A DNA stretch of 41,547 bases. It comes from a virus. The translations under genes were made by a program, and so were the position numbers. Where the stretch lies: positions 1-41,547 of IMG/VR virus record IMGVR_UViG_3300045988_165964. One strand, 5' to 3'. Of this stretch, positions 7,478-38,681 are shown in pieces. The stretch's first letter is position 1. Every line of letters begins with the position of its first letter. Below the pieces are notes generated by a model that was not told the origin of the DNA, searched no databases, and saw only the letters and a list, made by a program, of their open reading frames with translations.

Positions 7478-7552
7478 AGGGGTTTTGCCAAGCGGTAAGG
7501 CACAAGATTTTGATTCTTGTAATCGGTGGTTCGAATCCATCAATCCCTGCCA
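7478..7552 (+). tRNA. tRNA-Gln (anticodon UUG), CCA encoded
   Basis: Hand-folded cloverleaf. Acceptor AGGGGTT/AATCCCT (one G-U), D arm GCC-AAGCGGTAA-GGC, anticodon stem CAAGA/TCTTG, loop TTTTGAT (anticodon TTG at 7510-7512). T arm GGTGG-TTCGAAT-CCATC, discriminator G, CCA 7550-7552. Very similar to Bacillus-type tRNA-Gln. Confidence 0.9.
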
Positions 7553-9950: not shown

Positions 9951-10801
9951 TAATGATACGAGCCTATGCTTTGGTCATCCTTGATAAACAGGATAAAATT
10001 ATTGATCGGTTTAATCTCCCGTTGGTAACGAATCCTACAGAGAATGGTTTCAAGTTATCTTTATCTAAGATTTCAAGTGATATTGAAGACATAATAACAA
10101 AGGTTGTTCAACAGAAGACTGTAAAGAAGTTCAATGTCATTCAATATCAAAATTCTTATGAGAAATCTTTAGTTTTATCAAACTGGATTCAAAAGTACTC
10201 TAAGACAGACTTTCGGATGGCTTTGGAGTATAATGATACCAATCTACTCAAATATTGTGAGGGAAAGGTTACTTCCCTTGATAAAACCGAAAAAGACGAA
10301 TATGGAGTACTGACTCAGGCTATGGAATTCACTCCTGTGACTCCGTACTTCTTAAAACAAGAAAATGCTCTGATATTGAAGTCTTCAAATGTGGGTAAAA
10401 AATATCCATATAAATATCCGTATATGTATGGTACGAGTACTGTTGAAAATAACAAAGTTGACAACCCATACTTATATGATATTCCCGTTATAGTGACTCT
10501 TACAGGACCGATAGAACACCCTGCTGTAAGCCTTGCGGATGAAAACGATGAGAGCTACGCAAAAGTCAGTTTTCCGAATATTGACTTGGCTCAGGGTGAA
10601 AAACTTGTTATCAATTCGGCTCAGCGTAAAATCTATAAGATTGCTACAAACGGTACAGAAACAGACTATGTTCCGGAAGTTGACCCTCAATTTGATACTT
10701 TCTTACGAGCTCGGAGTGGTATTAGCAAATTGATTGTAAATACTCTCGATGCGGGGATAGGGTTTAGCCTTGTAGGTGGTTGGAGACAGTATGTGTTATG
10801 A
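9947..10801 (+). CDS. distal tail protein (Dit-like)
   Basis: 284 aa, overlaps the tape measure stop. Canonical position. Confidence 0.65.
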   Translation: MIMIRAYALVILDKQDKIIDRFNLPLVTNPTENGFKLSLSKISSDIEDIITKVVQQKTVKKFNVIQYQNSYEKSLVLSNWIQKYSKTDFRMALEYNDTNLLKYCEGKVTSLDKTEKDEYGVLTQAMEFTPVTPYFLKQENALILKSSNVGKKYPYKYPYMYGTSTVENNKVDNPYLYDIPVIVTLTGPIEHPAVSLADENDESYAKVSFPNIDLAQGEKLVINSAQRKIYKIATNGTETDYVPEVDPQFDTFLRARSGISKLIVNTLDAGIGFSLVGGWRQYVL

Positions 10802-19606: not shown

Positions 19607-19948
19607 TTAGAATTTTATAAAAGGCTTGTCGAGGTAAACCGCAGGAAGATTTTTATCATCTATGTAAAAGTCACAGAATATTTTACGGGTATCTCCTCCC
19701 CATTGGTCTTGTATCTCCGGAAGATTTTCATTTACAGCGTCAAAGATGAGTCCTCTTTCTTTACACCATTCTACAGCTGCGTCGAGGTGATTACCGTAAC
19801 GGTCATTTCTACGAGAAGTCCAAAGAATAATCTTATGTCCCATTTTTTTGAGCTGCTTTACATTATCTATACGGGCAGGAATTTCTTCCCCAATAGAGGG
19901 GAATCTATCCGTACAAAGAGTTCCATCAAAGTCTATTGCGTAGATCAT
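19607..19948 (-). CDS. small HAD-superfamily phosphatase (deoxynucleotidase-like)
   Basis: 113 aa. DxDxT motif IDFDGT, motif II WTSR, motif IV YIDDK. SD AAGGAGG. Confidence 0.7.
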   Translation of the reverse strand: MIYAIDFDGTLCTDRFPSIGEEIPARIDNVKQLKKMGHKIILWTSRRNDRYGNHLDAAVEWCKERGLIFDAVNENLPEIQDQWGGDTRKIFCDFYIDDKNLPAVYLDKPFIKF

Positions 19949-20268
19949 TTTGCCTCCTTGGTAAGTTCAATAGAAGTTAGATCTATCTGTTCAAGATTGG
20001 TGATACTCTCATAGAGAAGATCTACAAGAGCTGTTGCCCATTCGCCGATATCTTTGAAACCCTTTTTTCTGACTTCATTCTTGAATTTATGAATCGTGTC
20101 TTTATCTCGGAGTTCTCGGTGAGAAACCGTACACAATACCCTATACAGGGACATGCCTGTTTTTTCCTTGATCTTAGCAATAGCCTCTCTATGATCTTCT
20201 GGAATATAACAGATATGCGGATTCTCTCTCGGAGCCGAGATTTTAATTTTGTTTTTCTTTTCGTACAC
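19945..20268 (-). CDS. hypothetical protein
   Basis: 107 aa, GTG start 9 nt after GGGAGG. Confidence 0.5.
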   Translation of the reverse strand: MYEKKNKIKISAPRENPHICYIPEDHREAIAKIKEKTGMSLYRVLCTVSHRELRDKDTIHKFKNEVRKKGFKDIGEWATALVDLLYESITNLEQIDLTSIELTKEAK

Positions 20269-21070
20269 GCTCGTTTACCTCCCACAAGGCTTTTAACAAA
20301 GTATTCTTCGGTTCTGCTCCGTTAAGAATAGCCTCAATTTCTTCTTTACCTCCGTCTGTATAGTCCCATCCTCTTTCATCGAAATCATAGTCAGCAGAGT
20401 ATTCTACATTTTTATCCCAGTGTCTTTCATAAAGATGAAGATCACCAACAGTATGATAATACAATCCGGCAGGAAGACCGACTTCTTTGGCAACGATTTG
20501 TAATAAAACCGTGAAGAATCCCATATCATACGGCAACCCAAGCCATATGTCGTTTGACCGCATATAAGTGTGAAGATTGAGCTTACCGTTAAAGCAAGTA
20601 AATTGCAACAAGCAAGTACACGGTGTGTCTTTTGTCGGTTTATTGCTTGCTTCTTTAATATGTAATATGCACTGACGATCGTATGGATTCTTCTTGAGTT
20701 TATCTATACAATACTGTAATTGGTCAAACCCGAATTTATGGAAAATTCTGTAACCATAAGCAGAGTTCACGGTTTCACCATCATCAGATAAGTCATACCA
20801 CATTTTGGCATATTTGCCGATATCTTCAACCTTGTTAGATCCGCTGAGATACCACTGTATTTCACCAACAAGGTATCTAAGGCTCAAATTTCTTTGAGGG
20901 TTGAGACATACATTATGATAAGGGTTTGAAACGAGAAAAGTGATATCTGTAACATGTTTGGTTTTTCCGATACGGCTTACAACGGTTTCACCGAAGTCAG
21001 AAACAAAATTATAGGCTCTCTCAAAAGCATCTGTAACCGTATCACACGGAATTGTAGGAATCATAAGCAT
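20243..21070 (-). CDS. thymidylate-synthase-family deoxypyrimidine hydroxymethylase, predicted dCMP-specific
   Basis: Gapless match to ThyA over the core: NPYDRQCIL, TPCTCLLQF (Cys151), MRSNDIWLGLPYD, GDLHLYERH. Asp182 (codon 20525-20527) replaces the dUMP-specifying Asn. MRSND, PCT and NSAYGY resemble T4 dCMP hydroxymethylase, and the ThyA C-terminal tail is absent. Confidence 0.75.
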   Translation of the reverse strand: MLMIPTIPCDTVTDAFERAYNFVSDFGETVVSRIGKTKHVTDITFLVSNPYHNVCLNPQRNLSLRYLVGEIQWYLSGSNKVEDIGKYAKMWYDLSDDGETVNSAYGYRIFHKFGFDQLQYCIDKLKKNPYDRQCILHIKEASNKPTKDTPCTCLLQFTCFNGKLNLHTYMRSNDIWLGLPYDMGFFTVLLQIVAKEVGLPAGLYYHTVGDLHLYERHWDKNVEYSADYDFDERGWDYTDGGKEEIEAILNGAEPKNTLLKALWEVNERVRKEKQN

Positions 21071-21510
21071 AGTCCTGTATCTCCTTTAATAGTAATATAA
21101 TCAGCTCCTGACTCTCTGAGTAGTTGACTGTAAGAGCCTCGGATATTTTTGATCCATCTTTCCATATCAAATTTCATATGCGGATCTCCCTCCCCTCGGT
21201 TTATGAGTCTTTGAATAATAACCTCAGTAGGACAGTCTACATAGATCAATACGGTTTGAGTCTGCTTAAAGAATTCAATGAGTTCTTTAAGTTCTTGTTC
21301 AGTAAGTTTACGCTCCTCAGGTGAATTGTAGACAAACTGACCAAAGCAGAAACGGTCAAATACAACTCCCCCAGGGGTTAACATTTGTTTGTATTCTTCG
21401 AGTGTTCTTGGTGTACTTTCGTGCCAATAGTACAGATTGAATCTTTCACAAAGATAGTTAGCCAAGGTTGATTTACCCGTACCGTCACATCCCTCAATAA
21501 CAATATTCAT
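21061..21510 (-). CDS. dNMP (thymidylate-kinase-like) kinase
   Basis: 149 aa. P-loop IEGCDGTGKST is typical of Tmk-like kinases. SD GGAGG. Confidence 0.75.
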   Translation of the reverse strand: MNIVIEGCDGTGKSTLANYLCERFNLYYWHESTPRTLEEYKQMLTPGGVVFDRFCFGQFVYNSPEERKLTEQELKELIEFFKQTQTVLIYVDCPTEVIIQRLINRGEGDPHMKFDMERWIKNIRGSYSQLLRESGADYITIKGDTGLCL

Positions 21511-22357
21511 TTATGAGTTCCTCCAGTTCATTTTGAGATATCTTAATTCTTTTTACAGGAGCGTTCTTATGAACAAGTTTAAGAACAGGATGACCGTCTT
21601 TTCCCTCAGTTAGTTTAGTGTAAGTTCCACAATCATACTTTTTACAAAGTAACGGATAAAGATTATTTCTAATCTTATCATCTTTTTCTGTTTTACTACT
21701 AAAACATCTTGAGGGAAAATTCTCGACTGTAGACTTTGTAAGAATTTGAATTACTCCTACAGAATGTCCTTTTGAAATCGCTGAGATAGCATAGTTACAA
21801 TCTTCAAAATACTCATCGGTTTCCGGAAGATTCTCAAGCGGGTACTTTGCATTGACAATAAGTATATCATCAATTTGAGATATGTTCCCATTCAATTCAA
21901 CTACACAATCCGGAGTTACACCATTGGCAAAACCGCGAGGTCTAACGGAAAGTAATGCACAATCTGGATATCTATGAAATATTGCCTGAGAGATTTCTTC
22001 AAGTCTTGCTCTCATAGCATCTATGTGAGTTTCACAATAAGATTTTCCAGATATACAAGGCATTCTATTATAGAATTGAATATAGGATAACAAGGAAACC
22101 CTATCATCCATCTGAGCATAGAAGTCAGCTCCGAGCTTTCTCATATACTTATCTATATATCTTCGAGTTTCACCGATATTATGTACATCTTCTTCAATTG
22201 CTACAATTATAGCCTCGGGAAGATTTTTCCTGTAAAGTTCATATTGTTCTTTTCTTACAAAAAAGATAAAAGCATCTTTGAATGTAGAAAAAGAAATAAG
22301 GTTTCTATAGATAGGATTGTTCTCCCATCTATCCATACTCGGAATAGCTATAATCAT
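21494..22357 (-). CDS. GT-A-like glycosyltransferase, paralog 1 (candidate DNA-base glycosyltransferase)
   Basis: ATG at 22357 after GAGGGAG, ATGA overlap with the rSAM stop. Shares IPSxxR, VRKEQxxLY, IGETRRxI, the DD acidic motif and EDxNYA with 23249..24142. Confidence 0.5.
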   Translation of the reverse strand: MIIAIPSMDRWENNPIYRNLISFSTFKDAFIFFVRKEQYELYRKNLPEAIIVAIEEDVHNIGETRRYIDKYMRKLGADFYAQMDDRVSLLSYIQFYNRMPCISGKSYCETHIDAMRARLEEISQAIFHRYPDCALLSVRPRGFANGVTPDCVVELNGNISQIDDILIVNAKYPLENLPETDEYFEDCNYAISAISKGHSVGVIQILTKSTVENFPSRCFSSKTEKDDKIRNNLYPLLCKKYDCGTYTKLTEGKDGHPVLKLVHKNAPVKRIKISQNELEELINEYCY

Positions 22358-23256
22358 TTTTCCCACTCCCTCTTTCTGATATTTGAATACGGTGTTGTTC
22401 TGTAAGTTACAATCTCGTAGTCTCTTTGAGTAGGCTCAGGCAATGTTTCTTTTCCCATCCTATCGGGAAGAAGTCCGGGACGAACGGGAGAAGTTGCACA
22501 TATAGAGCAAGGATGAAAACAGCGTATACCTTGATAGAGAAACCGACGAGCTGATTCAAAACGAGGATGCATCCAGATATCAGCAATTTCCATTTCATTG
22601 ACATTGGCGATACCGTACTCACCTCTGAAGTCATCACAACATATTGCAATATTACCATCCCAGCGTACATACATTTCCCTGAACACTTTCGTACAACGAG
22701 CTTTTTTAGGCTCAGAAAGCGGAGGCATTCCAGCACCGCAGTGATTGGTAAGATTTCTTGCAATTGTCGGTTTTGCTAACTCGATAGGTGGGTTAAAACT
22801 GATAGACTTTTTATTCTCAAAAAGTTTAGATCCGTCCCCATATACTCTGTAGGCAATGTTGTTTTCCTTTAAGAATGCTTTGATGCTATCCAGAGTACTG
22901 TCTATGTACTCATCAAAGATAAGTTCTGTCACACCTGCGGTTAATAGCCATTCAAGATTTCGTATGTCTTTCAAAACACTATAGCCGTTGGTCATCATTA
23001 TGATGTTTACATTAGGAAGTTCTTTTCTAAGATAAGCAATCATATTCAAATGATCCGGATGTAAAGTGGGTTCACCGTGTCCTGCTAAAAGTATCTTGTA
23101 GTGCCAATCGGTTTTCTTAAGACTTTCAACCGTATGAACAAGCGTGTCAAACTCCATAAAACGGAGAGTCTTTTCAAGTCCGGAAGTGCCACAAAATTCA
23201 CAATGACGGTTACAACCTTGAGTAAATTCTATTTGTATTGTATTCGGTTTATACAT
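22354..23256 (-). CDS. radical SAM enzyme with SPASM/twitch-like C-terminal Cys domain
   Basis: CNRHCEFC (Cx3Cx2C, codons 23191-23214), then GHGEPTL. C-terminal part CTKVF..WDGNIAICCDDF...IADIW...CFHPCSIC. ATG at 23256 after GGAGA. Confidence 0.85.
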   Translation of the reverse strand: MYKPNTIQIEFTQGCNRHCEFCGTSGLEKTLRFMEFDTLVHTVESLKKTDWHYKILLAGHGEPTLHPDHLNMIAYLRKELPNVNIIMMTNGYSVLKDIRNLEWLLTAGVTELIFDEYIDSTLDSIKAFLKENNIAYRVYGDGSKLFENKKSISFNPPIELAKPTIARNLTNHCGAGMPPLSEPKKARCTKVFREMYVRWDGNIAICCDDFRGEYGIANVNEMEIADIWMHPRFESARRFLYQGIRCFHPCSICATSPVRPGLLPDRMGKETLPEPTQRDYEIVTYRTTPYSNIRKREWEK

Positions 23257-24142
23257 GGTATAATCTCCAATAATTCCAATCAAATTTTACTGATGGGAAT
23301 CCTGTTTTAGATTTTTTATACACTATGCCAGGATGACCAGCATAGAATTTTTTTGCTGTTTCAGTATACCACTGATATCTAAGGTTAGCATCCGATATAC
23401 CAGAAGCATTCTCACAACCGCCAGGGCAAGAATTGATAGCAGGGCAGTTGTATAACATGTCGGTTATCGTTAAAGCCTTTCCACCGTGGTACATGATTTC
23501 AAATTGTAAAGCATAATCTTCATTTCCGCATTCGTAGTTTGGTCTATAATTTATGCCGTACTCACGCATAAAATCTAAATTGAGCCATATACATTGTATA
23601 CAAGCAGAAGAATTTACTTTTTGCGGAGCGTTAGCATAATTCATATGCCAACTATCTGGACGATAGATAACGCTACTGATTGCGATTTGAGGATCACTTT
23701 GAAGATAGATGTAATACATCCACAATTTTAATTCATCTGTCCATCTTTTAGGAGGAGTTCCATAATGTAACGAAACTTTACGCATGGATTCTTTTCCTCC
23801 TGAAGTAATTGACGGGACAGTGTGCTCAAGTTCGGTTATATCATCGTCAAATAAAAAGATATTTGAATAGTACGGCATGCACTTTTCAATGATTTGACGC
23901 CTTGTTTCACCGATTTCAGTAACATTATCTAAATAGAGAAAACCAACTTTTCCCTCCCATTTTTTATAGAGATCAGCCTGTTCTCTTCGAATACATAAAA
24001 CAATCTTCAATTCAGGTTCAACTGAAAGTTGTTTAAGGATCTTAGGATCAGGACGGTTATAACTCGGAACAAAAATAGGCGGGACTTGATCATCGGTTAT
24101 AAGCTGTTTCGCTGTTTCGAAATATTGTTCACTTCTATACAT
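23249..24142 (-). CDS. GT-A-like glycosyltransferase, paralog 2 (candidate DNA-base glycosyltransferase)
   Basis: 297 aa. GT2-like N-terminal strand IFVPSYNRPD, IGETRRQI, and the acidic motif FDDDI. Confidence 0.55.
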   Translation of the reverse strand: MYRSEQYFETAKQLITDDQVPPIFVPSYNRPDPKILKQLSVEPELKIVLCIRREQADLYKKWEGKVGFLYLDNVTEIGETRRQIIEKCMPYYSNIFLFDDDITELEHTVPSITSGGKESMRKVSLHYGTPPKRWTDELKLWMYYIYLQSDPQIAISSVIYRPDSWHMNYANAPQKVNSSACIQCIWLNLDFMREYGINYRPNYECGNEDYALQFEIMYHGGKALTITDMLYNCPAINSCPGGCENASGISDANLRYQWYTETAKKFYAGHPGIVYKKSKTGFPSVKFDWNYWRLYHV

Positions 24143-24144
24143 TG

Positions 24145-24714
24145 TTAGTTTACTCCGTAATGATTATAAAGATCTGAAAGCAATTGTCTTGAAGATATTC
24201 GAATACAACAACATCCAGACTTTGTCAGATTGTTGAAAGAGTTATCAATTTGTCGTACCCTGCTACGGGTATTGTTCTCGTTCAATGGCTTGGTATTTCC
24301 TGCTTGAAGTCTTCTATTTTTTATATTCTCAATACATTTTTCGATAGGGGTATCAAGATAATAAAACACTGTATTTGCTTGAGGAGAAATACGGTTAGAA
24401 AAGTTAGACCATCTTGAAGATAGAGTAGAAACTAAAAGACCCTCAAAAATGACATTGTAACCGCCATTGAGAAGAGTTTGTATTCTTTCTTCAATCTCAT
24501 CTTGAGATCTAACCGTATCACATCCTCCACAAGCATTGTAATATGAGCCTACAATTGCCCAGCCATTTCTGGAATTGTAATATCCGAGTATTTTTCCGGA
24601 AGAGTCTTTCCACTCATTCCAATCTTCTAATGAAAGAAGTTGATGAATAATGTAAGATTTACCACTTCCGGAAGTTCCTCGTATATTTATAACAATTTGC
24701 TTAGAATGTTCCAT
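24145..24714 (-). CDS. small P-loop kinase (candidate DNA 5-hydroxymethylpyrimidine kinase)
   Basis: 189 aa. Walker A GTSGSGKS (24655-24678) and Walker B-like VIFEG. The role assignment rests on gene context. Confidence 0.5.
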   Translation of the reverse strand: MEHSKQIVINIRGTSGSGKSYIIHQLLSLEDWNEWKDSSGKILGYYNSRNGWAIVGSYYNACGGCDTVRSQDEIEERIQTLLNGGYNVIFEGLLVSTLSSRWSNFSNRISPQANTVFYYLDTPIEKCIENIKNRRLQAGNTKPLNENNTRSRVRQIDNSFNNLTKSGCCCIRISSRQLLSDLYNHYGVN

Positions 24715-25660
24715 ATGTTACAAATTCCTTATATTTCTCTTTACGAATACCTTTCCAACCGTTTAATTCTCCCAAAATCTCATGAGGGACATTTTTATAT
24801 CTAATCTCAAATAATTGATTCCATATGTAATCAAATTCAGGAAGAACTTTCTTGTAAGTATTTAATTCTTGTAATCTTCTGTCTGTATAATATTCCAGAT
24901 ATCTAATTTGTTTATACAATTTGAAATAGCTACATAAATATCCTACAATTCTTGCAAAGTTTGTCTTATATCCCAATTTATTCTCTGTATAGATTATTAT
25001 TTGTTGTAAGAGATATTCTAATTCTTTTATTTCTGATTTAGTGAGATTTCTACCTTGTTTTCTGATTTCATAAGCCAAATCATCACGATAAGAAATAACA
25101 AAGATAGATTGTGCACAGGTCTTGCAAGAATTCCAATCAAGATATGCTTCAGGAGTTAGGTCTAACCCCAAAAAATTATAAACAGATTCCATAAACAATA
25201 GAGCTGAAAATCTTCCACAGTAATAAATTGAAGTAAACCAATTATACAAAGCCGTTTGAGATTGATTTATCAAAGACATAATGACTTCATATTGCGAACG
25301 GTTATCAATTTTATTTTGATAAGAAGATACAATTGAAACAAACTTATCATTTTGTTTTACCCAGCGTCTGTCCGATTGAAATATCAATCTATCTTTATAG
25401 ATATTCCAAAATTCAGTCAATTTATCAATTGTTGCATCTTTGATTGAGGGAAATATTCGTAATAGTAAAGCTGATGTTGTTACAGAGTAACATGTCGAAT
25501 ACAAAAAAGATGCCCATATCTTAGACTCATTGTCATTACCTTGACAAAAATGTAAAAGATTATCCTCATCCCTGTCGTTTTGATTTTTTCGCTTAGAATA
25601 AAATCTCACAAACATATCTATTCGAAAACTCTTGTAATCATCATTAGGAATATTGTACAT
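24701..25660 (-). CDS. large helical protein, candidate aGPT-Pplase-like base transferase
   Basis: 319 aa, translationally coupled to the P-loop kinase gene. Assignment by context and vague motif memory only. Confidence 0.35.
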   Translation of the reverse strand: MYNIPNDDYKSFRIDMFVRFYSKRKNQNDRDEDNLLHFCQGNDNESKIWASFLYSTCYSVTTSALLLRIFPSIKDATIDKLTEFWNIYKDRLIFQSDRRWVKQNDKFVSIVSSYQNKIDNRSQYEVIMSLINQSQTALYNWFTSIYYCGRFSALLFMESVYNFLGLDLTPEAYLDWNSCKTCAQSIFVISYRDDLAYEIRKQGRNLTKSEIKELEYLLQQIIIYTENKLGYKTNFARIVGYLCSYFKLYKQIRYLEYYTDRRLQELNTYKKVLPEFDYIWNQLFEIRYKNVPHEILGELNGWKGIRKEKYKEFVTYGTF

Positions 25661-30435: not shown

Positions 30436-30924
30436 TCAGTTATTTGTATCAGTTTCATCACAATTCCAATCTGCTATATGAATAACTTCTACTCCGTTAT
30501 CTTCGAATAGTTTAGCAGCATTTTCTGAAATAGGAAATTCTCTACCATAGACAACGGTTTTGATACCCGCAGATACAAGAGCATAGGCACAATTATCACA
30601 GGGATAACGAGTAACAAAAGCCGTAGCTCCTTTCAACTGTTCTTTACGCTCTTTAGGAACATGTAAAAGAGCATCAACCTCACTGTGTATAACTTTACAA
30701 ATTTCCCTATGTTCTTTAGAATTATCCCCGAAAAGTTTTACTCGTAAACAACCATCTTCTTTACAGTTTGTTCCACGGTTAGCACCCTTGGCTAAGACTG
30801 TACGCCAAGCAGTCTCTTCTATAAGATAACAGCCCACTGCGGTTTTAGTACAGGTTGTATTGTTTTTAGCATAATTGTCAGCAAGTGTCAAAATGTTTTT
30901 CATTTGACCTTTGGTGTATCTCAT
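30436..30924 (-). CDS. dCMP deaminase-family (CDA-fold) zinc deaminase
   Basis: 162 aa. HSEVDAL (H-x-E) and PCDNC (PCxxC) zinc motifs. Confidence 0.85.
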   Translation of the reverse strand: MRYTKGQMKNILTLADNYAKNNTTCTKTAVGCYLIEETAWRTVLAKGANRGTNCKEDGCLRVKLFGDNSKEHREICKVIHSEVDALLHVPKERKEQLKGATAFVTRYPCDNCAYALVSAGIKTVVYGREFPISENAAKLFEDNGVEVIHIADWNCDETDTNN

Positions 30925-30926
30925 AT

Positions 30927-31940
30927 TTATCTCTCCTTTGGGATATATTTATTTCTTGGTCTTCCCGTATTTGTTACCGCTCGGATATATTTACTGATTT
31001 CACAATGGCAATTCTGTAATGACATTACATTCATATAACGATCCTCTTTAGGAAGATCAGTGAATATTTCATCAGGATTCCACGGAAGTTCCAACCAATT
31101 ACAAATATCAACCCAATGATCCCTCAGCCAAAAAAGACTTTCTGCATAAGACATACCATCTTTATTTTTGAATATAAGATCAAGACTTCTACGAGCTCCG
31201 GGACCTGCTACAACGAATTCATTCTCACTCCACAATGATTCCGGACAATAAGTTACATCAACAAAAATTTGATATGCCAAGAAATAGCCTATTCCGTCAA
31301 GCGTTTGTAAAGTGTTAACAAACTCTTCCGCCGTTGTACAATTTCCCAAAGTTGCTATGAAATCTTCTTTATGATATAATTCTTCTATGTAGCGTATGAC
31401 CGCATATATGGGTTTGACTCCTTTCATCGGATCATAATAGGAAGAAATATATCCCAAAGCAGCACACATAGCACGCTTTACACCGCCTGTATTGAAAGCG
31501 TTTGTAAAGAAAGCATAATCATTTGGTTTACTTTCTACATATGTATGTATTTTATCCCAGTCAACTCCATTATCAAAATTGATGGGCATAAATTGCTTAC
31601 AAGTTTCACTTTTATTGATAACTCTAAAGAGAATCAAGTTACAGATTTTACTCGCCCAGCTCATAGCATCCTCAGGAATAGAGCATATATTATCTATAAC
31701 CCAACGAGTCTCACGATCATGTTCTCTACGAACATTTGTAAACCTATATTCTTGAAGAATAGGGTTATTTGTCCACGGAGCAGGACGCTTTTCAACATCT
31801 TTAAGAATATGAATTTTGTAGCGTTCTGTTACCCATGTATAGAGATGTTTGAAATTTTCTTCATTAATCTCTGCTTCGGCTTTTAAGATCCTATCTTTGT
31901 TACATCCCAAGTATGGAATATCATTTTGCTTATTGAGCAT
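30927..31940 (-). CDS. large helical protein, candidate aGPT-Pplase1-like DNA base hypermodification enzyme
   Basis: ATG at 31940 after GGAGA. The motif PAPWTNNPILQEYRFTNVRREHDRETRW and a later AGPGARRSL recall the family annotated as DNA base hypermodification proteins. From memory only. Confidence 0.45.
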   Translation of the reverse strand: MLNKQNDIPYLGCNKDRILKAEAEINEENFKHLYTWVTERYKIHILKDVEKRPAPWTNNPILQEYRFTNVRREHDRETRWVIDNICSIPEDAMSWASKICNLILFRVINKSETCKQFMPINFDNGVDWDKIHTYVESKPNDYAFFTNAFNTGGVKRAMCAALGYISSYYDPMKGVKPIYAVIRYIEELYHKEDFIATLGNCTTAEEFVNTLQTLDGIGYFLAYQIFVDVTYCPESLWSENEFVVAGPGARRSLDLIFKNKDGMSYAESLFWLRDHWVDICNWLELPWNPDEIFTDLPKEDRYMNVMSLQNCHCEISKYIRAVTNTGRPRNKYIPKER

Positions 31941-32142
31941 TTTTATCTCCTTCCTTGGTATAATTTTCACATAAGGTTATTATTCTCAATATAGAACACA
32001 AAGCTCCATAATCTTGATAGCAACCTTTACTGATTCCTTTAGAACACAGTTCATCTACGGTATTCTTAAAAGTATTGTAACCTTGTCCTGTTGTGTCTTT
32101 GAATTGATCTAACTCTTTTGTTAATTCTTCAATATTGTTCAT
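31930..32142 (-). CDS. hypothetical protein
   Basis: 70 aa, ATGA-type coupling to the upstream gene. Confidence 0.5.
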   Translation of the reverse strand: MNNIEELTKELDQFKDTTGQGYNTFKNTVDELCSKGISKGCYQDYGALCSILRIITLCENYTKEGDKNAQ

Positions 32143-34747: not shown

Positions 34748-34907
34748 AAGGAAATTTCCTCCTTTTTATACTATTCGTCAATTCACGAACATAACATTGG
34801 TAGTAATCTTTCTTCTTGCAAAGATATATACAATCATAACAACTATTACAACCTTTACGATCACGAATAACTCTTACACCATGTTTATACACTTGTATTG
34901 ATTTCAT
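34704..34907 (-). CDS. small Cys-rich protein
   Basis: 67 aa, SD GGGAGG, ATGA overlap with the MazG-like stop. Contains CNSCYDCIYLC...C. Confidence 0.5.
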   Translation of the reverse strand: MKSIQVYKHGVRVIRDRKGCNSCYDCIYLCKKKDYYQCYVRELTNSIKRRKFPYDNTTCEDFESKEQ

Positions 34908-35380
34908 TTGTTTCCTCCCAAATAGCGTTGTTTGGTTCTCAGAGCTTTTTTGTCTATAATATCAGAGAGCTCCTCAGCCGTAAAGTTGAAAATTTGACAT
35001 AAGTACTGACACATAAATAAAACATCTGCCAACTCCTCTTTTATATCATTTTTACTTGCTTCGGCAAAAGCATTCTCACGGTTATATAGACGAGTTCTAC
35101 GCTCTTTTACAAGAGCTTTCGTAAGTTCAGACATCTCTTCTATACAAACATCTATCTGACTGTCTTTGCCGTATTTTTTAATCATTTCTTCAATCACTTG
35201 TTCAGGCTTGAAGACTTTATAGTCATATTCAGCTTTTGCTTTACGATACAAAAACCGAGCGGACATTTCGTCATATGTACTATAAATGTAATACTGGTTA
35301 TTTGAATCCATAGTGATTACTTGAAAGAAATCACGCTCCCCATCATATTTGGGTATTTGATGAAATATAGGTTCTCTCAT
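34904..35380 (-). CDS. MazG-like nucleoside triphosphate pyrophosphohydrolase
   Basis: 158 aa. EEMSELTKAL ... EELADVLFM matches the EExxE...ExxD MazG signature. Confidence 0.7.
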   Translation of the reverse strand: MREPIFHQIPKYDGERDFFQVITMDSNNQYYIYSTYDEMSARFLYRKAKAEYDYKVFKPEQVIEEMIKKYGKDSQIDVCIEEMSELTKALVKERRTRLYNRENAFAEASKNDIKEELADVLFMCQYLCQIFNFTAEELSDIIDKKALRTKQRYLGGNK

Positions 35381-37256: not shown

Positions 37257-37411
37257 TATAATACTCCTGCAACCCACTCTCCATACCGTTTTGCTCCCTT
37301 GAAAGTGAAATGCCAACTTACGGGACTCCCGCAATCATAGACTTTATATCCAAAGAAACAACGCTTGATTTCTACACAGCCATCAAATGTTTTTAATCTG
37401 TAAATAGCCAT
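37256..37411 (-). CDS. small protein (51 aa)
   Basis: ATG at 37411 after GGAGGGAGACG. MAIYRLKTFDGCVEIKRCFFGYKVYDCG... Confidence 0.45.
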   Translation of the reverse strand: MAIYRLKTFDGCVEIKRCFFGYKVYDCGSPVSWHFTFKGAKRYGEWVAGVL

Positions 37412-37976
37412 CGTCTCCCTCCAGATATAGTTTTTGTATACTAACTTCATGCAAGCCAAAGAGTTTATCACTGTCAGCTCGTTTGAAGTATCGTTTTTGA
37501 AGTCTACCCTCAATTCTTATATTTGTACCGTTGGGAACATTCTCTAACCGTTTAGCAATTATTCCCCAAGCGATGGTAGAAATATAAGCTGTAGAGTATT
37601 CGGTTTTTACCTTAAGAATAAAATCATTGATGGTTCTTCCCAACGGAGTACACCTTACAGGAGTCTTATCTTCAATAGTGCCTATGAGATTCACCTCATT
37701 ATGTTCTATTGGTTGCATGAGATGTTTAATTCCTATCGCTTTGATATAGGTTTTCTTCTTAGGATAGGAATCAGTCCCGATTGTTCTCAATTCTCCCTCT
37801 ATACTGTAATATTCCAACGGGTGAATATCATTCTGCCAAGTTTGAAATATGAGAATATCAACTACTCCAGACTTTCGCTCAACCGCAATAGTTCCCTCAT
37901 ACATCTTGATACTTATATTGATTTCATGAGAAAATGAAATACTTCTCACCATGCCTGCTACTTGAATATGATTCAT
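37383..37976 (-). CDS. ssDNA-binding protein, tandem OB-fold type
   Basis: 197 aa. The second half (NEVNLIGTIEDKTPVRCTPLGRTINDFILKV...IAWGIIAKRLENVPNGTNIRIEGRLQKRYF) follows the SSB OB pattern and the first half repeats it loosely. No acidic tail. Confidence 0.6.
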   Translation of the reverse strand: MNHIQVAGMVRSISFSHEINISIKMYEGTIAVERKSGVVDILIFQTWQNDIHPLEYYSIEGELRTIGTDSYPKKKTYIKAIGIKHLMQPIEHNEVNLIGTIEDKTPVRCTPLGRTINDFILKVKTEYSTAYISTIAWGIIAKRLENVPNGTNIRIEGRLQKRYFKRADSDKLFGLHEVSIQKLYLEGDDGYLQIKNI

Positions 37977-38512
37977 TGTAAAACATCCTCCATATGTTTT
38001 TGAAATTTTTCTTTGAATTTTTTAAGACTACGACTCACTCGAGATTGTGGAATGTTCAAAAAAGCTCCGATTTCGTTTTGAGTGTAACCTTGTATGACTT
38101 TTTCTATCAGCGGTTTATAATAGTCAGGAAAGTCTTCAAGAGTCCTACTGATTACATCAAGAGTATCTTTTTTAGAGTATTCATCCGGAACAGAAAGTGT
38201 ATCCATCAAACTCATTTCATTCCCCTCTTTGTCTTCCGCTATGATTGATTCTATAGGAATTGTGCAAGGTTGCCTATTCATCTTACGGCTTATGTAGGAT
38301 ACCATACCATTGTAAATTGAAAGTACTGCATATGTAGAAAAAGTAAAACTGTATTCTTCTTTGAAATTCAGACAAGCTCGCCATAGAGCAAACATTCCCT
38401 CCTGAATCAAATCTTCTTTACACTGATTGTTTTTAGAGCTTGAAGAAAATCGTCTCATAAATACATAGTATACAAGTCGCTTATTTTCCTCAAAGCGTTG
38501 CTCGGGGTTCAT
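37973..38512 (-). CDS. sigma-70-family RNA polymerase sigma factor
   Basis: Region 2 DLIQEGMFALWRA...FSTYAVLSIYNGM and region 4 HTH GYTQNEIGAFLNIPQSRVSRSLKK. ATG at 38512 lies 6 nt after AAGGAGG. Confidence 0.8.
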   Translation of the reverse strand: MNPEQRFEENKRLVYYVFMRRFSSSSKNNQCKEDLIQEGMFALWRACLNFKEEYSFTFSTYAVLSIYNGMVSYISRKMNRQPCTIPIESIIAEDKEGNEMSLMDTLSVPDEYSKKDTLDVISRTLEDFPDYYKPLIEKVIQGYTQNEIGAFLNIPQSRVSRSLKKFKEKFQKHMEDVLQ

Positions 38513-38681
38513 TATCATCCTCCTTGAATTTACATTCACCTGTACATTGAATTACAGGAATAGTACAAGTCAAGCATTTATCTCTACCTTTCGCGCATAT
38601 TCCCTTTTTCGGTTTTGCTCGACGATATTCTTTTCGCCAGACCTTTACCACTCCTGTATTATCAAACCATTTTGTCCTCAT
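38490..38681 (-). CDS. small basic Cys-containing protein
   Basis: 63 aa, SD GGAGGAAAC. First gene after promoter P3. Confidence 0.55.
   Translation of the reverse strand: MRTKWFDNTGVVKVWRKEYRRAKPKKGICAKGRDKCLTCTIPVIQCTGECKFKEDDNEPRATL

Follow-up and report, generated by a model that had tools for sequence, protein, structure and literature searches.

Enzymes of the thymidylate synthase (TS) family select their base through the residue equivalent to Asn177 of E. coli ThyA, Asn selecting deoxyuridylate (dUMP) and Asp selecting deoxycytidylate (dCMP), and the residue equivalent to Leu143 is hydrophobic in methylases and Asp or Glu in hydroxymethylases (PMC13326640). The ternary complex of T4 gp42 (PDB 1B5D, 6A9A), the dCMP hydroxymethylase of phage T4, defined a hydroxymethylation signature made of Asp145, three residues before the catalytic Cys (Cys-3), and of Ser94-x-Tyr96; both D179N and D145N abolish activity, and D179N leaves nearly no formation of 5-hydroxymethyl-dCMP (5hm-dCMP) and weakens dCMP binding (PMC6400193). 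Similarly, N177D or N229D mutants of thymidylate synthases move their preference toward dCMP, as cited in PMC8670742. Ser167 and Arg126' were identified as deoxyribose determinants in a study of MilA (PMC5175136), and a D169N change is the mark of the flavin-dependent 5-hydroxy-dCMP (5hoC) synthases (PMC13326640). In phages that hypermodify thymidine, the TS homologues linked to the modification genes were termed dUMP hydroxymethylases (Lee et al. 2018, 2021), and the characterised 5-hydroxymethyl-deoxyuridine DNA kinase (5-HMUDK) phosphorylates 5-hydroxymethyl-uracil (5hmU, or hmU) and not 5-hydroxymethyl-cytosine (5hmC) (PMC6457204). Here, we analysed a stretch of 41,547 nucleotides (IMG/VR record IMGVR_UViG_3300045988_165964, hereafter called the window), which is a genome-sized phage contig of 41.5 kb with a G+C content of 38%, and in which a TS homologue of the cytosine type, as judged from its residues, stands in one operon with homologues of this hmU-type machinery. 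Human-gut metagenomes hold identical or near-identical copies of this window (41.4-41.5 kb). Since a megablast search with 15 kb of it against 50,697 phage records gave zero matches, there was no close cultured relative to compare it with.

The open reading frame (ORF) 20243..21070 (minus strand; Pfam PF00303, E 7e-35) encodes a TS-family protein of 275 aa, a predicted deoxycytidylate 5-hydroxymethylase, and is the single TS-family gene of the window, where a second one was searched for and none was found. A preliminary description of this DNA had proposed that an Asp stands at the base-specificity position of this protein and had predicted 5hm-dCMP synthesis from it. The codon, read directly, is GAT at 20525..20527 (20527-20525 on the minus strand) and encodes Asp182. 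The gap-free alignment that had been put forward between YMRSNDIWLGLPYD and the thymidylate-synthase segment YQRSADVFLGVPFN was reproduced by HMMER, in which the former matches the YQRS[A/C]D[V/I]FLG[V/L]PFN stretch of solved thymidylate synthases; the best matches include the L. casei N229D mutant and MilA, both with an Asp in the column of Asp182. MAFFT alignments, with T4 gp42 taken from the T4 record, placed Asp182 in the column of E. coli Asn177 and T4 Asp179, as had been claimed, and curated and automatic alignments agreed on Asp, and on no other residue, at the specificity position. Asp182 is kept in 120 of the 120 closest database homologues (46-100% identity) and in all of 80 viral loci that we gathered from IMG/VR with an alignment of the TS homologue, every one of which is therefore Asp-type, so that it can be neither a chance nor a strain-specific substitution.

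The rest of the active site was compared using diagnostic residues drawn from the literature (E. coli positions L143, C146, H147, Q165, C168, D169 and N177). At these positions, the window protein has Asp148, Cys151, Thr152, Met170, Asn173, Asp174 and Asp182, a D-C-T-M-N-D-D signature that is the same as in T4 gp42 and that is invariant in the 120 homologues and the 80 viral loci. The Asp148-Thr-Pro-Cys151 segment (20618..20629, minus strand) contains the catalytic Cys, whose TGT codon lies at 20620-20618 in a T-P-C-T context, and the hydroxymethylase-type Asp at Cys-3 (E. coli Leu143, T4 Asp145). Ser103-Ala-Tyr105 (20756..20764, minus strand), also family-invariant, corresponds to the water-activating Ser-x-Tyr motif of the T4 enzyme (Ser94/Tyr96), and by alignment the Met170-Arg-Ser-Asn-Asp174 segment (20549..20563, minus strand) provides the equivalents of E. 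coli Asp169 (Asp174) and of the deoxyribose-selecting Ser167 (Ser172). Glu70 and Arg132 are present as well, and Asp148, Ser103, Tyr105, Cys151 and Asp174 are all invariant in the family of the window protein. The sequence and fold marks of a T4-type enzyme are all found: a TS fold with its Cys, an Asp at the specificity position, and an Asp at Cys-3 combined with Ser-x-Tyr. Overall, the likeness to T4 gp42 extends to the seven diagnostic residues, Ser-x-Tyr, Glu60, M-R-S-N-D and the lack of a ThyA-type C terminus, but the two proteins are only ~25% identical (phmmer E 1e-16), the window protein has a C-terminal helical extension of 50 aa, and it has a Gln in place of one of the two phosphate-binding Arg (R132-Q133).

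Seven enzymes from phages that have 5hmU or a hypermodified thymine in their DNA, or the standard cluster for it (SPO1 gp29, SP10, CBA120, M6, PaMx11 gp51, Pam3 and RHph_I65), gave a different picture. All have a D-C-N-[N/C]-[N/Q]-D-N signature and differ from the window protein at three base-facing positions (N/N/N(C) instead of Asp182, Thr152 and Met170), and no Asp-bearing dUMP hydroxymethylase was found. The resemblance of the window protein to T4 gp42 in MRSND and N-S-x-Y-G, noted in the preliminary description, is real, these hmU-phage enzymes having NRSND and [AG]-x-Y-G. The dUMP hydroxymethylases (SPO1 gp29, SP10, M6, PaMx11 gp51 and the ViI-like CBA120) do share with the window protein the Asp at Cys-3 and an operon logic of AADT, kinase, TS and nucleotidase genes, but they have Asn at 177, Asn at 147 and Asn or Cys at 165, they miss the Ser of Ser-x-Tyr, and they have a C-terminal extension of ~100 aa.

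Profiles, fold and phylogeny were in line with these residues. The ThyA C-terminal tail had been described as absent, and this holds in the sense that the Pfam match reaches no further than position 217 of the 266 profile positions and that the NCBIfam ThyA equivalogs stay far under their cut-offs (94.8 bits vs 327; 83.8 vs 108). An AlphaFold2 (AF2) model of the protein (predicted local confidence, pLDDT, 92) shows a two-helix extension at residues 225-275 that is unrelated to the ThyA tail. When this model was used for a fold search of the PDB, MilA came first (E 2e-21, template-modelling (TM) score 0.75) and the T4 dCMP hydroxymethylase second (E 6e-17), with every thymidylate synthase lower; AfhB was matched too (TM 0.67-0.84). 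In a neighbour-joining tree, the dUMP hydroxymethylases, including all seven Asn-bearing enzymes, formed one clade (97/100 bootstraps) that leaves the window protein outside, and the latter joined the Asp-type enzymes of Enterococcus phage 9183 and Lactobacillus phage ATCCB (85/100). Altogether, the best-supported reading is that the window ORF encodes a folate-dependent dCMP 5-hydroxymethylase, and the determinants known from the literature make it likely that this enzyme uses dCMP.

Taken alone, this TS homologue would be one more predicted dCMP hydroxymethylase; what appears new is its conserved pairing with a kinase/transferase machinery that was previously characterised on 5hmU only. The TS gene belongs to a compact minus-strand operon with overlapping reading frames, which runs from 25660 down to 19607 in the order AADT-like, P-loop kinase, TAGT-like, radical SAM/SPASM, TAGT-like, deoxynucleoside monophosphate (dNMP) kinase, TS, an ORF of 107 aa and a small HAD. 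The AADT-like (aGPT-Pplase2) protein (24701..25660, minus strand; PF18724 ADDT E 2.6e-7) has its Cys243 at 24932-24934, and the P-loop kinase (24145..24714, minus strand), which has a GTSGSGKS Walker A motif, is a homologue of 5-hmdU DNA kinases (PF18748 HMUDK_HMUD1 E 2e-8; phrog_800 E 5e-24). A third protein of the same machinery, the aGPT-Pplase1 or 'HMUDK_hel' protein (30927..31970, minus strand; PF18723 E 6e-56), is encoded further upstream and is ~35% identical to proteins of ViI-like phages; directly downstream of it lies a gene for a dCMP-deaminase-family enzyme (30436..30924, minus strand; dCMP_cyt_deam_1 E 1e-15), a candidate deaminase of (5-hydroxymethyl-)deoxycytidine ((5hm)dC) nucleotides. 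The preliminary description had rightly pointed to the oddness of a cytosine-type enzyme beside hmU-type kinase/transferase genes, and this oddness is conserved across the whole phage family.

A same-strand homologue of the kinase was found in half of the gathered loci (40/80), mostly 0.2-1.5 kb from the TS gene, and 36 of these 40 kinase loci also have an AADT-like gene. In four Asp-type-TS loci (L069, L070, L071 and L075; e.g. L069:7513-9114), the AADT-like and HMUDK-like parts are fused in a single ORF of ~530 aa, and one such chain (P0133) matches both Pfam families; this fusion is strong evidence that the AADT-like protein and the kinase act together in this phage family. No Asn-type TS (zero cases) was found within 10 kb of the Asp-type TS in the kinase-bearing loci. 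A dNMP kinase adjoins the TS gene in 29/80 loci and a small HAD does so in 59/80. Furthermore, the radical SAM/SPASM and TAGT-like (GT2-like) pair occurs without kinase or AADT in ten loci (L034, L035, L054, L060 and L063-L068), and since each of the two modification modules also occurs alone in other loci, the window can be regarded as a composite of two separable modules. A scan of IMG/VR that was centred on the kinase gave 64 loci with a TS homologue, among which 58 are Asn-type and three Asp-type, all three being relatives of the window. The paradox of an Asp-type hydroxymethylase in an hmU-type kinase context is therefore real, and the papers found in a literature search do not describe a pairing of an Asp-type TS with an hmU-type kinase/AADT. 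As a side observation, one of the loci gathered with the TS alignment, which has no kinase, carries a second TS homologue of the Asn177 type (L072:19475-20323; N-C-A-Q-Q-D-N), ~9 kb from its Asp-type gene.

The kinase and AADT-like proteins themselves were compared with characterised hmU enzymes. The window kinase is 34-38% identical to the 5-HMUDK enzymes of M6, Ab18 and PaMx11, and it scores higher against PaMx11 gp49 (92 bits) than against the other Asp-context kinases (64-79 bits), and these others form a group that is 46% identical to SP10 gp186 (152-164 bits). Asp-context kinases thus interleave with the characterised hmU kinases PaMx11 gp49 and SP10 gp186 (34-46% identity) and form no separate cytosine clade. 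Since two kinase lineages each hold Asp-context members, Asp-type hydroxymethylases must have joined hmU-type kinase lineages at least twice. Concerning the AADT-like protein, its AF2 model (pLDDT 91) had a sole meaningful fold match in the PDB, which was PUGT (probability 1.0, TM 0.51-0.58), and this modelling indicates that it is a genuine though distant relative of this PaMx11 glycinyltransferase; at the sequence level, the PDB held no meaningful match to the AADT-like protein, to Pplase1 or to the kinase, and PUGT was recovered by fold alone. In PUGT, the thymine O4 is contacted via a metal held by Glu243 and Thr244, beside the catalytic Cys247 (PMC11472151), and the Glu beside the catalytic Cys was reported to be essential in M6 gp51 and ViI gp247. 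Residues 239-243 of the AADT-like protein (24932-24946, minus strand) read V-G-Y-L-C, where PUGT and Pam3 have E-T-[IV]-L-C. About half of the Asp-context AADTs keep the Glu-[Ser/Thr] dyad and the others differ, with an invariant catalytic Cys.

Compared with the thymidine hypermodification systems of Lee et al. (2018, 2021), the window has a homologous P-loop kinase, an AADT-like protein with its catalytic Cys, Pplase1, a linked TS-family hydroxymethylase, a deaminase and a PolA, but its hydroxymethylase is of the predicted cytosine type, its AADT-like protein is without the essential Glu, and two TAGT-like genes are interleaved. Its radical SAM enzyme, of the SPASM/twitch type, also differs from M6 gp53, which is an SPL-like isomerase. 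A cluster that is fed by a cytosine-type hydroxymethylase, as its residues suggest, would be unlike every described thymidine-hypermodification cluster.

A way to reconcile these two sides is offered by the deaminase. Phage enzymes of the dCMP-deaminase family that are linked to an Asp-type TS selectively deaminate 5-methyl- (5m-) and 5hm-dC nucleotides, and 5-hydroxymethyl-deoxyuridine (5hmdU) is then found in DNA in vivo (bioRxiv 10.1101/2024.12.05.627091). We surveyed deaminase homologues by an alignment-based scan, a scan of viral contigs with the single protein having given just one distant locus. Among near-complete genomes (contigs of at least 35 kb), 25 of the 26 with a kinase encode such a homologue vs 13 of the 25 without (Fisher p = 3e-4, shared ancestry being ignored). 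In the window the deaminase gene abuts that of Pplase1, and four other loci (L023, L027, L041 and L042) have it downstream of the AADT-kinase pair, at a distance of 0.7-1.9 kb. The window resembles the modified-cytosine-selective deaminase route of Xp12-like phages (mSCD-B5) described in the same preprint in that an Asp-type TS is paired with a dCMP-deaminase-family gene, but the role proposed there is the conversion of 5m-dCTP into dTTP, whereas here, judging from the genes alone, 5hm-dUTP would feed the kinase and AADT. The literature search did not find a natural route from 5hm-dC to 5hm-dU that feeds a 5-HMUDK. The preliminary description had not weighed such a conversion: its prediction of 5hm-dCMP as the product is supported by active-site residues, phylogeny and known determinants, and the step that may follow was missing from it.

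We propose that the TS homologue would be the entry step of the operon. Cys151 would attack C6 of dCMP while Asp182 would read and protonate the N3/N4 face of the cytosine, methylene-tetrahydrofolate would give one carbon to C5, and Asp148 would activate a water molecule together with Ser103 and Tyr105, the exocyclic methylene then being hydrated into 5hm-dCMP instead of ending as a methyl product. The adjacent dNMP kinase and host enzymes may convert 5hm-dCMP into the triphosphate, and the deaminase encoded at 30436-30924 may turn part of the 5hm-dC nucleotide pool into 5hm-dU nucleotides, a step that is needed if every enzyme is to keep the specificity of its family. The family A DNA polymerase of the phage (PolA; 35571..37334, minus strand; Pfam DNA_pol_A E 4e-83) could then incorporate both modified nucleotides, giving a DNA that carries 5hmC and 5hmU, on which the TAGT-like enzymes would act on 5hmC in a glycosylation-type reaction and the kinase, AADT-like and Pplase1 proteins on 5hmU. 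A functional equivalent of T4 gp42 that feeds the cluster, with a deaminase route that we infer, is in our opinion the best explanation overall and the one we favour with fair confidence; the deaminase route to hmU, taken as a claim of its own, we hold more tentatively, at slightly less than an even chance.

Several points weigh against this explanation. Concerning the TS homologue, the grouping of all Asp-type enzymes is weak at the deep branches of the neighbour-joining tree (4-16/100), phmmer scores the whole protein better against PaMx11 gp51 (1e-31) than against T4 gp42 (1e-16), which is very divergent, and the use of dCMP by members of the window family is a prediction. Concerning the deaminase, the statistic for its association with the kinase ignores shared ancestry, and its use of 5hm-dC nucleotides in the window is a candidate activity that our analysis suggests. 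In MetaGPA, only one Pfam is more enriched than the dCMP deaminase on contigs with modified cytosine, 99 selected contigs having a deaminase vs 109 with a TS, and hmU phages encode a dCMP deaminase too (PaMx11 gp56, RHph_I65). Since this gene is common in cytosine-modifying and hmU phages alike, its presence alone does not discriminate, and we dropped it as decisive evidence for hmU given that it is nearly universal in cytosine-modifying phages too. Neither the Pplase nor the kinase families figure in the MetaGPA Pfam table as enriched on contigs of this kind with modified cytosine. Finally, M6 gp51 and ViI gp247 depend on a Glu that is missing from the AADT-like protein, whose Val-Gly in place of Glu-Thr would suit a different base.

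This last point leads to the main rival, a cytosine hypermodification in which 5hmC replaces C and is itself the direct substrate of the HMUDK-like kinase and the AADT-like enzyme. Cys243 would then attack C6 and an amine or hydroxyl nucleophile would displace the phosphate, so that the 5-methylene of cytosine would bear an amino-acid or amine adduct, to which the TAGT-like (glycosylation) and radical SAM enzymes would possibly add, or which they would remodel. A Michael addition at C6 is feasible on cytosine, as this chemistry operates on cytosine in C5-cytosine methyltransferases. Such a pathway would fit the fact that Asp-type TS and kinase/AADT genes are direct neighbours, often with overlapping frames, in 36-40 loci, with no Asn-type TS within 10 kb there and one TS gene in the window, and that AADT-like proteins with an invariant Cys are often without the Glu-[Ser/Thr] dyad used by PUGT to hold the metal on thymine O4; the literature search found no paper describing or excluding it, and nothing relevant on a 5hmC DNA kinase or a phospho-methyl-cytosine. 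What makes it unlikely in our view is that the characterised 5-HMUDK acts on 5hmU only and that two separate kinase lineages mix Asn- and Asp-context members at 34-46% identity, 58 of the 64 TS loci of the kinase scan being Asn-type, so that a switch of base would have been needed at least twice, in kinase, AADT and Pplase1 together. In addition, about half of the Asp-context AADTs retain the dyad, and the deaminase is almost universal in kinase-bearing genomes. The TAGT-like genes were rejected as evidence for cytosine, their matches being weak and the TAGT family spanning hmU. This family includes the hmU-glucosylating base-J transferase.

Distinctly less probable than direct action on 5hmC is a dUMP hydroxymethylase that works despite its Asp, for example if a protonated Asp mimics Asn, in a conventional 5hmdU pathway for which the deaminase supplies dUMP. 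The classic set for thymidine hypermodification (kinase, Pplase2 and Pplase1) is indeed present, the order AADT-kinase-(x)-TS-nucleotidase parallels that of PaMx11 and Pam3, and dUMP hydroxymethylases outscore T4 gp42 in the whole-protein comparison given above. However, 7/7 dUMP hydroxymethylases have Asn at 177 and Asn at 147 while the window protein has Asp/Thr/Met as the T4 enzyme, the D179N change in T4 nearly ends 5hm-dCMP formation, N177D/N229D changes shift TS to dCMP, and the window protein falls outside the dUMP hydroxymethylase clade. The homologue of Agathobaculum phage AB434P2 is labelled as a deoxyuridylate hydroxymethyltransferase, but this label is automatic and the AB434P2 protein itself has the Asp.

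Any other TS-family activity (ThyA, an Xp12-type dCMP methylase, a 5-hydroxy-dCMP synthase of the RB69 gp48/HY126 AfhB type or a MilA-type CMP hydroxymethylase) we regard as very improbable, because, despite the general TS fold and Pfam match, MilA as top fold match and an Asp177 common to dCMP methylases and 5hoC synthases, each was rejected on its own grounds: ThyA since Asp replaces both Leu143 and Asn177, the equivalogs are far under cut-off and the C-terminal closing segment is absent; the dCMP methylase since the acidic Cys-3 and Ser-x-Tyr favour hydration over hydride transfer; the flavin 5hoC synthase since Asp174 (E. coli Asp169) is kept and invariant, where RB69 gp48 (E-C-T-M-Q-N-D) and all tested 5hoC synthases have Asn (Asn169 together with flavin in RB69 gp48 and AfhB, which do share the cytosine-type Asp); and MilA/BcmA, also with the cytosine-type Asp, since the window protein has the deoxyribose-type Ser172 and Arg132 in place of the Ala/Lys that gives MilA its ribose preference; moreover, the neighbouring DNA-modifying enzymes require a hydroxymethyl handle.

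Each of the three resolutions of the paradox would be new. If the favoured deaminase route is true, dCMP would be converted into 5hm-dC and then 5hm-dU nucleotides that feed thymidine hypermodification, with both C and T probably modified from one hydroxymethylase. If direct action on 5hmC is true, there would be a cytosine counterpart of thymidine hypermodification and a new class of DNA base, and if the enzyme uses dUMP, this would break the Asn/Asp rule of base specificity, on which the annotation of phage TS homologues widely relies. For annotation, TS homologues beside 5-HMUDK genes in metagenomic contigs should not simply be taken for dUMP hydroxymethylases: since an Asp-type TS recurs beside 5-HMUDK, a plain label of this kind is unsafe, and the AB434P2 homologue carries exactly such a label. 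This phage family is common in human-gut viromes, where its DNA chemistry bears on sequencing bias, restriction resistance and the interplay between phage and host, and its enzymes are candidate tools to label or discriminate 5hmC and 5hmU.

The remaining genes of the operon include two putative DNA glycosyltransferases of the TAGT-like (GT-A) type, the first at 21494..22366 (minus strand; Pfam TAGT E 2.4e-11; phrog_842 E 2e-12) and the second at 23249..24142 (minus strand; Pfam TAGT E 1.4e-4, below cut-off; phrog_842 E 3e-11), which are unlike the alpha/beta-glucosyltransferases of T4. The radical SAM/SPASM enzyme (22354..23283, minus strand; Pfam Radical_SAM E 1e-13; SPASM E 5e-10) is encoded between them, and the thymidylate-kinase-like dNMP kinase (21061..21510, minus strand; Pfam Thymidylate_kin E 1e-11; TIGR00041 E 6e-14, below cut-off) overlaps the start codon of the TS gene. 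Downstream of TS, a small HAD-type phosphatase of 113 aa (19607..19948, minus strand; phrog_24386 E 1e-33; phrog_1238 E 6e-29) occupies the slot that an HD-domain 5'-deoxynucleotidase has in PaMx11, Pam3 and Bordetella phage CN2. Sugar-bisphosphate phosphatases of the RB69 gp51 type are members of its PHROG too, although the match to this RB69 sugar phosphatase covers 20 residues only (E 0.006); from these matches, it may be a nucleotidase or a sugar phosphatase, both being candidates.

Outside of the operon, a MazG-like nucleoside-triphosphate pyrophosphohydrolase (34904..35380, minus strand; Pfam MazG E 6e-6; phrog_2245 E 4e-19) is a candidate to exclude canonical deoxynucleoside triphosphates, and its phmmer comparisons with T4 gp56 (dCTPase), PhaxI gp085 and Pam3_58 each gave E >= 0.08; T4, like the window, encodes a MazG-like pyrophosphatase as well as a dNMP kinase and a dCMP deaminase. 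Directly upstream of PolA (37383-38539, minus strand) are a second gene for an OB-fold protein resembling single-stranded-DNA-binding proteins (197 aa) and a sigma-factor-like gene (188 aa; phrog_351 E 4e-27), and a tRNA-Gln with anticodon TTG (7478-7552, plus strand) lies within the block of structural genes.

Among cultured phages, the nearest homologue of the TS protein is that of AB434P2 (L001:3838-4500), which is 49% identical and has a D-C-T-M-C-D-D signature, Asp-type despite its automatic 'deoxyuridylate hydroxymethyltransferase' annotation. Bacteroides phage BF486P2 has two Asp-type TS paralogues 2 kb apart (L002:7171-7932, 10004-10684). Enterococcus phage 9183 (L094:6416-12947) and Lactobacillus phage ATCCB (L093:6998-10053), which are cultured Firmicutes phages, also have an Asp-type TS in which Asp169 is kept, and its neighbours there are genes for a dNMP kinase, a small HAD, a nucleoside-diphosphate-sugar pyrophosphorylase-like protein and a glycosyltransferase (glucosyltransferase) or UDP-galactopyranose mutase, which suggests a previously uncharacterised glycosylated 5hmC in these two phages.

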